From NCBI RefSeq assembly GCF_044647545.1, contig NZ_CP172818.1: a stretch of 64,000 nucleotides of DNA, one strand, 5' to 3'. Origin of the DNA: Escherichia coli. Its GTDB lineage: Bacteria; Pseudomonadota; Gammaproteobacteria; Enterobacterales; Enterobacteriaceae. Below the pieces are notes generated by a model, which saw only the letters and a list, made by a program, of their open reading frames with translations, made no database searches and was not told where the DNA came from. Below, in pieces: positions 55,546 to 57,032 of the stretch (position 1 is its first letter; the number at the start of each line of letters is the position of its first letter). Position numbers and translations under genes: made by a program.

Positions 55546-55935
55546 TCAAGAAAATGCCAGGAACGGAGAAACACAAAGCAACAAACCAGTGACGATAATC
55601 AGGTACAGAGACATCCCTTTGTATTTGTGCAATGCCGGTACTTTGTAAACCAGCCACGCCGGGATCAGGCACCCTACCATGCCGAAAATCGGGCTACAGA
55701 TAGAGGTGAAGCTCAACACCGGTGCGTTCAGTACGATGGCGCTCCAGGCCAGCAAAATGGCGAAAATCATGATGCCGCGCTGAACGAGATTTTCGTTAAT
55801 CTTCTCGGCAGGCATCTTGCGACGCAGGATGTTCATTACGATCCCTTGCGTTGCTTCGCGAAAGCCTAAATAGACGCCAAAAAACGCGGTCATTACTGCA
55901 AAGATATTGAGAATGACGCTGACCCTTTCACCCAC
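55546..55935 (-). pseudogene. cyuP: 3' (C-terminal) fragment of serine/cysteine transporter gene; 5' two-thirds replaced by the GC-rich block
   Basis: ORF 55546..56160 (204 aa): the C-terminal ~130 aa (...VSVILNIFAVMTAFFGVYLGF...LAFS) look like a HAAAP-family transporter tail, the N-terminal ~70 aa are Gly/Trp-rich low-complexity translation of the C/G-rich block; K-12 YhaO/CyuP is 443 aa. Confidence 0.65.
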
Positions 55936-56640
55936 GGGGTTGCCCTCCTTCCATCTCTCTCCTGTTCCTGCTCCCTCCCCCACCCCCCCCCAAAACCTCC
56001 CCCCACCAAAACCCAAACAAACCCCAACCCAAACAACCCCCCCCCCCCACCCACCCACACACACACCCCCACCCAGAAAAGAACGACCCAGACCAGCCAC
56101 GACAGCCCCGGCCGCCGCCGGCGCCCGGCGCGCGGGCCGCCGACACCCGCTCCGCGCCACACCATGAGTGATCAGACGACAGGGACGGCGGCGGCAGCGC
56201 CCAAAGCGTCAACCAGGCGCAGGCAAGCTGCACGCCGCGTGTGCCGAGGGATTTCACCGCGCAAAGCCACCGCCAGGCCGTCGTCACGGAGCCGCGGCAT
56301 AGGGCAGACAGGGAGTCCGCGCCACCGACGGCCGCGATGCCGCATGCCAAGTGCGTGACATCAGACGTGCAGCGCCACACGAAGCTCGTAGCCGTCTGTC
56401 GTGCTAGTGAGACATCAGCGCGCGTTAGCACCGCAGCCCCATGTCGCGCCTCCCCCCCGCCTCCGGCGCCCCCCTGTCCACCCGCCCCCCCGTCCCCCGG
56501 CACCGGGCCGCGCGCGGCCCCCGCGCGGCCCCCCACCCCCCCCCCCCGGGCGGGCGCGGCCCCCGACAGCCCGCCCGGCCCGGCCCCCCCGCGCCCGGCC
56601 CAGGGGGGGGGGGGGGGGGGGGGGGGGGGGCCCAGACCGG
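55936..56640. other. anomalous ~0.7 kb block, ~80% GC, homopolymer-rich, no credible gene; likely artefact or scar at a deletion junction
   Basis: C-runs of 9-12 (e.g. 55983-55991, 56037-56048, 56536-56547), (ca)5, and a G28 run at 56603-56630; only Pro/Gly/Arg-rich low-complexity ORFs on both strands; flanked by truncated yhaO and the AT-rich yhaC-like 3' remnant. Confidence 0.8.
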
Positions 56641-56893
56641 GGGCATTACCGAAAGCGTCAAAGAAAATGCTTATCTTATCGATCCAAAAATTAATTACAA
56701 TACAGATTTAAACATAGAGGATTCTAGCTCAGAGGAATTCCTTTCAGATAATACACTAGAGAAAGACGAAAATTCTCCTGACAATTGCTTTGAGGTCGTA
56801 AAATATAACACATATGAAGCTTATAACTCAGAGAAGCAATATTTTACCAGAGAGGACTATACGTATGATTACGACCTTTTAAATGCAATATAG
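56641..56893 (+). pseudogene. yhaC: AT-rich 3' remnant of an ORF convergent with rnpB (probably yhaC in K-12), 5' part missing
   Basis: Stop-free frame ...ITESVKENAYLIDPKINYNTDLNIEDSSSEEFLSDNTLEKDENSPDNCFEVVKYNTYEAYNSEKQYFTREDYTYDYDLLNAI* ending at 56893; sharp switch from ~80% GC to AT-rich at about 56640; assignment to yhaC is from map position only. Confidence 0.35.
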
Positions 56894-56949
56894 ACTTAAT
56901 AATTTCTTACAAAGTCTATTATTAATACCGTAGATATTTATTCATCTTA

Positions 56950-57024
56950 CTCCAAAAGCAAAAACCCGCCGAAGCGGGTTTTTATAAAGCTCCAAAAGCA
57001 AAAACCCGCCGAAGCGGGTTTTTA
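56950..57024 (-). terminator. two tandem 40-bp copies of the rnpB rho-independent terminator
   Basis: ctccaaaagcaaaaacccgccgaagcgggttttta occurs at 56950-56984 and 56990-57024; on the minus strand each reads AAAAACCCGCUUCGGCGGGUUUUUGCUUUUGGAG just 3' of rnpB. Confidence 0.75.
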
Positions 57025-57032
57025 CGTAAAAC

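Follow-up and report, generated by a model that had tools for sequence, protein, structure and literature searches.

A probable IS1-linked deletion of the tdc region in an ST648-like clone of Escherichia coli, with an unreliable sequence at the joint

We analyzed a 64-kb stretch of DNA from Escherichia coli (64,000 nucleotides of contig NZ_CP172818.1, hereafter the window) in which the tdc operon and its neighbors are missing between cyuA, which encodes a cysteine desulfidase, and rnpB, which encodes the RNA of RNase P. The gap is very probably a real but ordinary deletion, linked to the insertion sequence IS1, of the 5' part of cyuP, tdcGFEDCBA, tdcR, yhaB, and the 5' part of yhaC, and the sequence that the window gives for the junction itself is unreliable. 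A single 768-bp IS1 joins the same cyuP and yhaC flanks in four complete genomes that are otherwise nearly identical to the window. Where these genomes have IS1, the window has a 707-nt block of GC-rich sequence.

We inspected positions 54100 to 57600 directly, along with the list of open reading frames (ORFs), and compared the window by BLAST to the annotated record for E. coli K-12 MG1655. In MG1655, the gene order is cyuA, cyuP (yhaO), tdcG, tdcF, tdcE, tdcD, tdcC, tdcB, tdcA, tdcR, yhaB, yhaC, rnpB, and garK, which is the order that the original prediction, made from the sequence of the window alone, had given. The left-hand match to K-12 ends inside cyuP, at K-12 position 3257070 (window position 55936). 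The match restarts in the 3' end of yhaC (window position 56651), is ungapped from K-12 position 3269368, and is followed by rnpB and garK. The 5' part of cyuP, tdcG, tdcFEDCBA, tdcR, yhaB, and the 5' part of yhaC are gone. About 12.28 kb is absent relative to K-12, in agreement with the predicted synteny gap of about 12 to 13 kb between cyuA and rnpB. More precisely, the IS1 junctions of the sister genome NZ_AP022098.1 (see below) map to K-12 positions 3257078 and 3269360, so 12,281 bp is gone. In the nearest intact relative, FDAARGOS_497, the missing piece is the 12,282 bp between the IS1 junctions; the match of the window to this genome stops at L004 32665 and restarts at L004 44955, with no change of strand.

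The other coordinates of the original prediction also hold. The ORF and the Rfam match agree with its placement of cyuA (54208-55518) and rnpB (57033-57409), and its two junctions, at about 55936 and about 56640, are correct to within a few bases. As it described, nothing lies between cyuA and rnpB other than a 3' fragment of cyuP, a GC-rich block, and a short ORF tail, here the 3' end of yhaC; elsewhere, the window and K-12 are collinear (96-99% identity).

To place the junction among known genomes, we used megablast to compare positions 55400 to 57100 to 5,426 complete genomes of E. coli. None of them contained the 707-nt block. However, both flanks lie close together in NZ_AP022098.1 (strain WP4-S18-ESBL-09), NZ_CP103468.1 (4973), NZ_CM169490.1 (EC11), and NZ_LR130555.1 (MS14385), and a looser version of this pairing was found in a fifth genome, E138. 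All four of the deletion genomes match the flanks of the window at 100% identity, and the window as a whole is 100% identical to NZ_AP022098.1 over 64 kb, except at seven small non-coding loci. That finished genomes with this near identity have the same junctions bears out the proposal that the gap is a deletion. In NZ_AP022098.1, the annotated order is cyuA, "amino acid permease, missing N-terminus" (the stub of cyuP), IS1 family transposase, "hypothetical protein, missing N-terminus," and rnpB. The IS1 lies at L001 3546-4313, is 100% identical to the query copy of IS1, and has its transposase co-oriented with cyuA. It is not flanked by a target duplication: the adjoining 9 nt are CGCTGCGCC on the left and GAAAGCGTC on the right.

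The window departs from the sequence of the sister genomes 7 nt before the left end of IS1 and rejoins it 7 nt before the right end. At the right junction, the window reads ...GGGGGCATTACC|GAAAGCGTC, a genome with the IS1 deletion reads ...GGCACCATTACC|GAAAGCGTC, and the intact relative FDAARGOS_497 reads ...AAAGATTATG|AAAGCGTC. The window retains the terminal CATTACC, which is not present in intact yhaC. As judged from these alignments, the block occupies exactly the place of IS1 in the sister genomes (to within 7 nt). The features between cyuA and rnpB, in the coordinates of the window, are as follows.

54208 to 55518, minus strand: cyuA (yhaM), intact cysteine desulfidase gene; an ORF of 436 amino acids that is annotated as cyuA in identical relatives
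55546 to 55936, minus strand: 3' fragment of cyuP (yhaO) that retains roughly the last 130 of 443 codons; aligned to positions 281-397 (of 397) in a serine/threonine transporter family
55937 to 56643, no strand: unreliable GC-rich block, 707 nt; takes the place of what in the sister genomes is 7 nt of cyuP and 761 nt of IS1
56104 to 56441, minus strand: tdcE-like stretch within the block, degraded but natively oriented; K-12-type allele, with dropout of A and T
56644 to 56650, no strand: CATTACC, the last 7 nt of the terminal inverted repeat of IS1, from the comparison of junctions
56651 to 56893, plus strand: 3' fragment of yhaC, the last 80 codons and the stop codon; matches positions 316-395 of 395 of the YhaC family (E = 1.6e-43)
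56950 to 57024, no strand: terminator-like unit CTCCAAAAGCAAAAACCCGCCGAAGCGGGTTTTTA next to rnpB, present twice with a 40-nt spacing; present once in the sister genome
57033 to 57409, minus strand: rnpB, RNase P RNA, intact and full length (Rfam RF00010, 318.6 bits)

In the cyuP fragment, one base (an A) is absent at position 55925, just ahead of the block. The original prediction went without IS1 as the agent, the unreliability of the block, its tdcE-like stretch, and what the truncation of cyuP would mean for cyuA and cysteine catabolism.

We also considered whether the segment was lost or moved. We searched the complete genomes of E. coli for the segment as it stands in the intact relative (12,275 nt) and for 24.9 kb of flanking sequence. 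At 99% identity or above, there were 62 records for the flank versus 58 for the deleted segment, and the four genomes with the IS1 deletion were not among the 60 best matches to the segment (down to 98.7% identity). Because a copy moved elsewhere should be about 100% identical and head this list, the segment has been lost from the sister genomes, not moved. The deletion is thus carried by 4 of about 62 close relatives. Across the 5,426 complete genomes, tdcD-tdcC-tdcB had no match in 30 and was covered at less than 80% in 16 more: loss of tdc is rare, but it is not unique. Separately, ISEcp1 lies inside the tdc region in two ST648-like genomes.

The block has a peculiar composition. Positions 56000-56149 and 56500-56599 contain no T at all (0 T per 50 nt), and the GC content reaches 0.92 to 0.96. 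The 64-kb window has four homopolymers of at least 9 nt, and all of them are in the block (a run of 28 Gs, two runs of 12 Cs, and one of 9 Cs). Low-complexity runs of C/A and C/G surround a T-depleted segment from tdcE. A sensitive comparison of the block to E. coli genomes (28 Gb) gave a sole significant match, to tdcE, at positions 56203-56423 (75% identity, E = 6e-21; 222 of 296 positions identical and 57 gaps, with the native orientation kept). In gap-tolerant local alignment, this core scored 157, as compared to 37.6 ± 2.3 for shuffled sequences, and the 99 nt to the left of the core map collinearly to the adjoining part of tdcE (35.5 versus 22.8 ± 1.7 for shuffles). The related gene pflB was rejected as the source of the block, as it scored 57 bits versus 105-122 bits for tdcE. 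Relative to tdcE, 131 bases are deleted, including 72 Ts and 28 As, and there are also 11 substitutions of T by C.

This stretch does not derive from the tdcE of the strain itself. K-12 and ST648-type tdcE (from sequence type 648) differ at 14 sites in this region. At 13 of these, the block agrees with K-12; at one, it has a gap; and at none does it have the ST648-type base. The tdcE sequence in the block therefore does not come from this lineage.

The rest of the block has no clear source. Its outer parts (55937-56103 and 56442-56643), when compared to the lost 12.3 kb, scored below shuffled sequences. We also asked whether the block is a degraded IS1. The best score against IS1 was 61, versus 47 ± 4 for shuffles (maximum 58), or about 3 standard deviations above; across global and local alignments on both strands, the block was no better or barely better than shuffles, so this origin was rejected as unproven. 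A foreign GC-rich element was rejected as well. Plasmid records matched the block only in tdcE, in mislabelled chromosomes; the ORFs of the block, which overlap in several frames, matched no NCBIfam family; and no Rfam family was found in the block. GTDB representative genomes and JGI metagenomes contain no exact copy of a 54-nt core pattern of the block, and a large index of gene positions has no entry for either of the two junction-spanning chimeric ORFs.

We know of no biological explanation for the combination of base-specific dropout, T-free runs, a run of 28 Gs, and a template from the wrong allele. Because of these features, we conclude that the block is best read as an artefact at a multicopy repeat, that is, a failed reconstruction of IS1, and not as biology. 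Candidate origins are a bad gap-closing read at the insertion sequence, a failure of polishing or consensus, reads from another sample, and model-based reconstruction; a "channel collapse" in two-colour chemistry was considered too. As the origin of the window, a simple version of reference-guided consensus with K-12 is unlikely: the window keeps ST648-type insertions and deletions as well as the ST648 allele of yhaC.

Other spots in the window look imperfect as well. The seven loci that differ from NZ_AP022098.1 are all non-coding, and there are no coding differences over 64 kb. At 2472-2511, between cca and bacA in a sequence that resembles a repetitive extragenic palindrome (REP), six short gaps, mainly of T or A, remove 18 nt relative to all relatives, and the best full-length match among the 5,426 genomes is 91% identical; this dropout of A and T appears to be of the same flavour as the dropout in the block. 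At 16628, there is one extra C in a run of Cs between nfeR and aer, and at 30459-30461, between ygjK and fadH, GCC replaces CGG in the loop of a REP-like hairpin. Upstream of exuR, a G-to-A change at 45492 turns TATGAT into a perfect TATAAT, and CTG is inserted at 45503-45505, as in K-12; no complete genome has this combination in an ST648-type context (the best match is 98.0% identical). At 56950, the window has an additional copy of the 35-nt terminator-like unit in place of CACTATG, with a spacing of 40 nt. K-12 has several copies of a longer unit, with a spacing of 113 nt, and the duplicated arrangement of the window is found in one piece in no complete genome. This pattern across the seven loci looks like local reconstruction error rather than divergence. 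The window is unfaithful at hard non-coding spots, and features at those spots should be read as biology only with the reads in hand.

Some differences from FDAARGOS_497 are shared with other genomes. Positions 14939-16464 (nfeF-nfeR) form a dense patch with about 70 differences from that relative. Since the patch is 100% identical in NZ_AP022098.1, ECONIH1, and others, it reflects natural recombination within the clone. Similarly, the window and NZ_AP022098.1 both have an 11-nt deletion in ygjI (around window position 26198); the annotation of NZ_AP022098.1 lists ygjI as a pseudogene with a frameshift. A frameshift is likewise annotated for higB in the relatives.

Several observations weigh against a real deletion in the source of the window. 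IS1 itself is readable in the window only as its terminal 7 nt, so its presence there has to be deduced from the sister genomes. At face value, the tdcE-like sequence suggests that DNA or reads from tdcE were in the sample. Also, a 5,342-bp operon for CS1-type fimbriae, which every close relative has between exuT and exuR, is absent at 45436/45437. It encodes a chaperone, a major subunit, a usher-like protein with a TcfC domain, and a tip adhesin (CfaE/CblD), and it is present in the sister genomes with the IS1 deletion too. The break falls at the empty site of K-12, with flanks of ST648 type, and no complete genome matches this junction at above 89% identity. The absence of the operon could be a real deletion or an artefact. 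Because the process that produced the window can drop kilobases, claims of absence from the window alone are weakened. Taken together with the non-coding oddities at all seven differences from the nearest genome, the tdcE-like sequence and the missing operon would fit an intact tdc region in the source, with the gap arising by a collapse of the assembly or reconstruction, in the same process that gave the block and the loss of the fimbrial operon. Given the pattern of reconstruction error, we keep a small probability for this explanation, but we consider it unlikely. The left edge of the gap is no more than 7 nt away from the left junction of IS1 in the four deletion genomes, and its right edge coincides exactly with their right junction, with the CATTACC of IS1 kept, which a random collapse would miss. 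Furthermore, an intact tdc region in this strain would not account for a tdcE sequence that agrees with K-12 at 13 of the 14 sites and never has the ST648-type base.

Alternatively, the deletion may be real and the block may be genuine, with IS1 replaced by, or never present alongside, 707 bp of GC-rich foreign DNA or repair filler. The block is written without Ns, and its length differs from the 768 nt that it replaces. However, the run of 28 Gs, the two runs of 12 Cs, and the 150-nt T-free stretches have no counterpart elsewhere in the window; base-specific deletion of T, as in the tdcE centre, is not the product of any known biological process; aside from tdcE, there is no match in plasmids, E. 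coli, GTDB representative genomes, or JGI metagenomes; the overlapping ORFs match no family; and the 7-nt end of IS1 was kept. We think that a genuine block is very unlikely. Hardly any more credible is a bolder form of this idea, in which the block is genuine filler, depleted of T and rich in homopolymers, at the IS1 joint that contains a degraded tdcE from a foreign allele; if true, this would imply an unknown kind of error-prone synthesis with template switching. An equally slim chance goes to a milder alternative, that repeated, independent loss of cyuP-tdc driven by IS1 (in the ST648-like clone and in E138) is adaptive in extraintestinal E. coli. Finally, it is extremely unlikely that the tdc genes were translocated to elsewhere in the genome, as no second copy is present in the four finished sister genomes (none of the 60 best matches to the segment comes from them).

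In the explanation that we favor, the window comes from an ST648-like clone that is typified by WP4-S18-ESBL-09, 4973, EC11, and MS14385. In this clone, a single IS1 lies between the 3'-terminal third of cyuP and the final 80 codons of yhaC, and the intervening 12.28 kb has been lost. A single IS1 without a target duplication is the classic footprint of an adjacent deletion or of recombination between two copies of IS1. Two routes could therefore be envisioned: intramolecular transposition of IS1 may have led to an adjacent deletion, or two direct copies of IS1, one in cyuP and one in yhaC, may have recombined.

Deletions of this kind have a long history. Reif and Saedler reportedly described IS1-promoted deletions in the gal region of E. 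coli in 1975. As in those classic adjacent deletions, the sister genomes have one IS1 at the joint, no target-site duplication, and a loss of the adjoining DNA. Unlike those, this deletion is in a natural clone, from clinical or environmental sources, and did not arise under laboratory selection, and in the window the IS1 cannot be read. The window shares its flanks and both junctions with NZ_AP022098.1, NZ_CP103468.1, NZ_CM169490.1, and NZ_LR130555.1, but these four genomes have a clean 768-bp IS1 as well as the CS1-type fimbrial operon between exuT and exuR. E138 (NZ_AP022351.1) resembles the clone of the window in that an IS1 (L002 3358-4125) lies between a 3' stub of cyuP and rnpB and the tdc operon is gone. 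However, E138 is from another lineage (its flanks are about 97% identical), its IS1 is in the opposite orientation, and its end points differ: cyuP is kept to K-12 position 3256889, and the sequence resumes at 3267884, in yhaB. The loss of tdc in E138 is a separate, independent IS1-associated event. E138 also has further small deletions in yhaB and yhaC.

Catabolic genes have also been lost through insertion sequences in host-adapted E. coli and Shigella, where such losses are known as "black holes" (for example, the cadA region). As in those cases, an insertion sequence removed a dispensable catabolic block in a pathogenic clone. In contrast to the black holes, there is no evidence here that the loss was selected for, and the deletion is carried by just a few of the close relatives. 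In a literature search (for ST648 with the tdc operon, for the names of the strains, and for tdcE with IS1 deletion), we did not find a paper on this deletion. Events of this kind are already known, and four complete genomes in RefSeq already contain the allele, apparently without discussion.

What would the deletion mean for metabolism? TdcB is a dehydratase, TdcC is a transporter, TdcD is a propionate kinase, TdcE is a 2-ketobutyrate formate-lyase, and TdcA and TdcR are activators; TdcG is a serine deaminase, and CyuP imports cysteine. Based on these roles, the clone should lack the TdcB/TdcE/TdcD route for the anaerobic breakdown of threonine and serine, as well as the transporter TdcC, the serine deaminase TdcG, and the cysteine importer CyuP. 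Cysteine catabolism is probably affected too, through the truncation of cyuP. In K-12, cyuP and cyuA are co-oriented and 27 nt apart. With cyuP truncated, cyuA may have lost its upstream expression region: cut off from the region upstream of the pair, it would be left dependent on possible read-through from IS1.

As a strain-level loss of genes by a textbook mechanism, the deletion carries little biological weight. Nevertheless, it predicts a sub-clone that does not ferment threonine and serine via TdcB/TdcE/TdcD and that has impaired catabolism of cysteine by CyuPA, which could matter for studies of the fitness of ST648-like strains with extended-spectrum beta-lactamases in the gut or the urinary tract.

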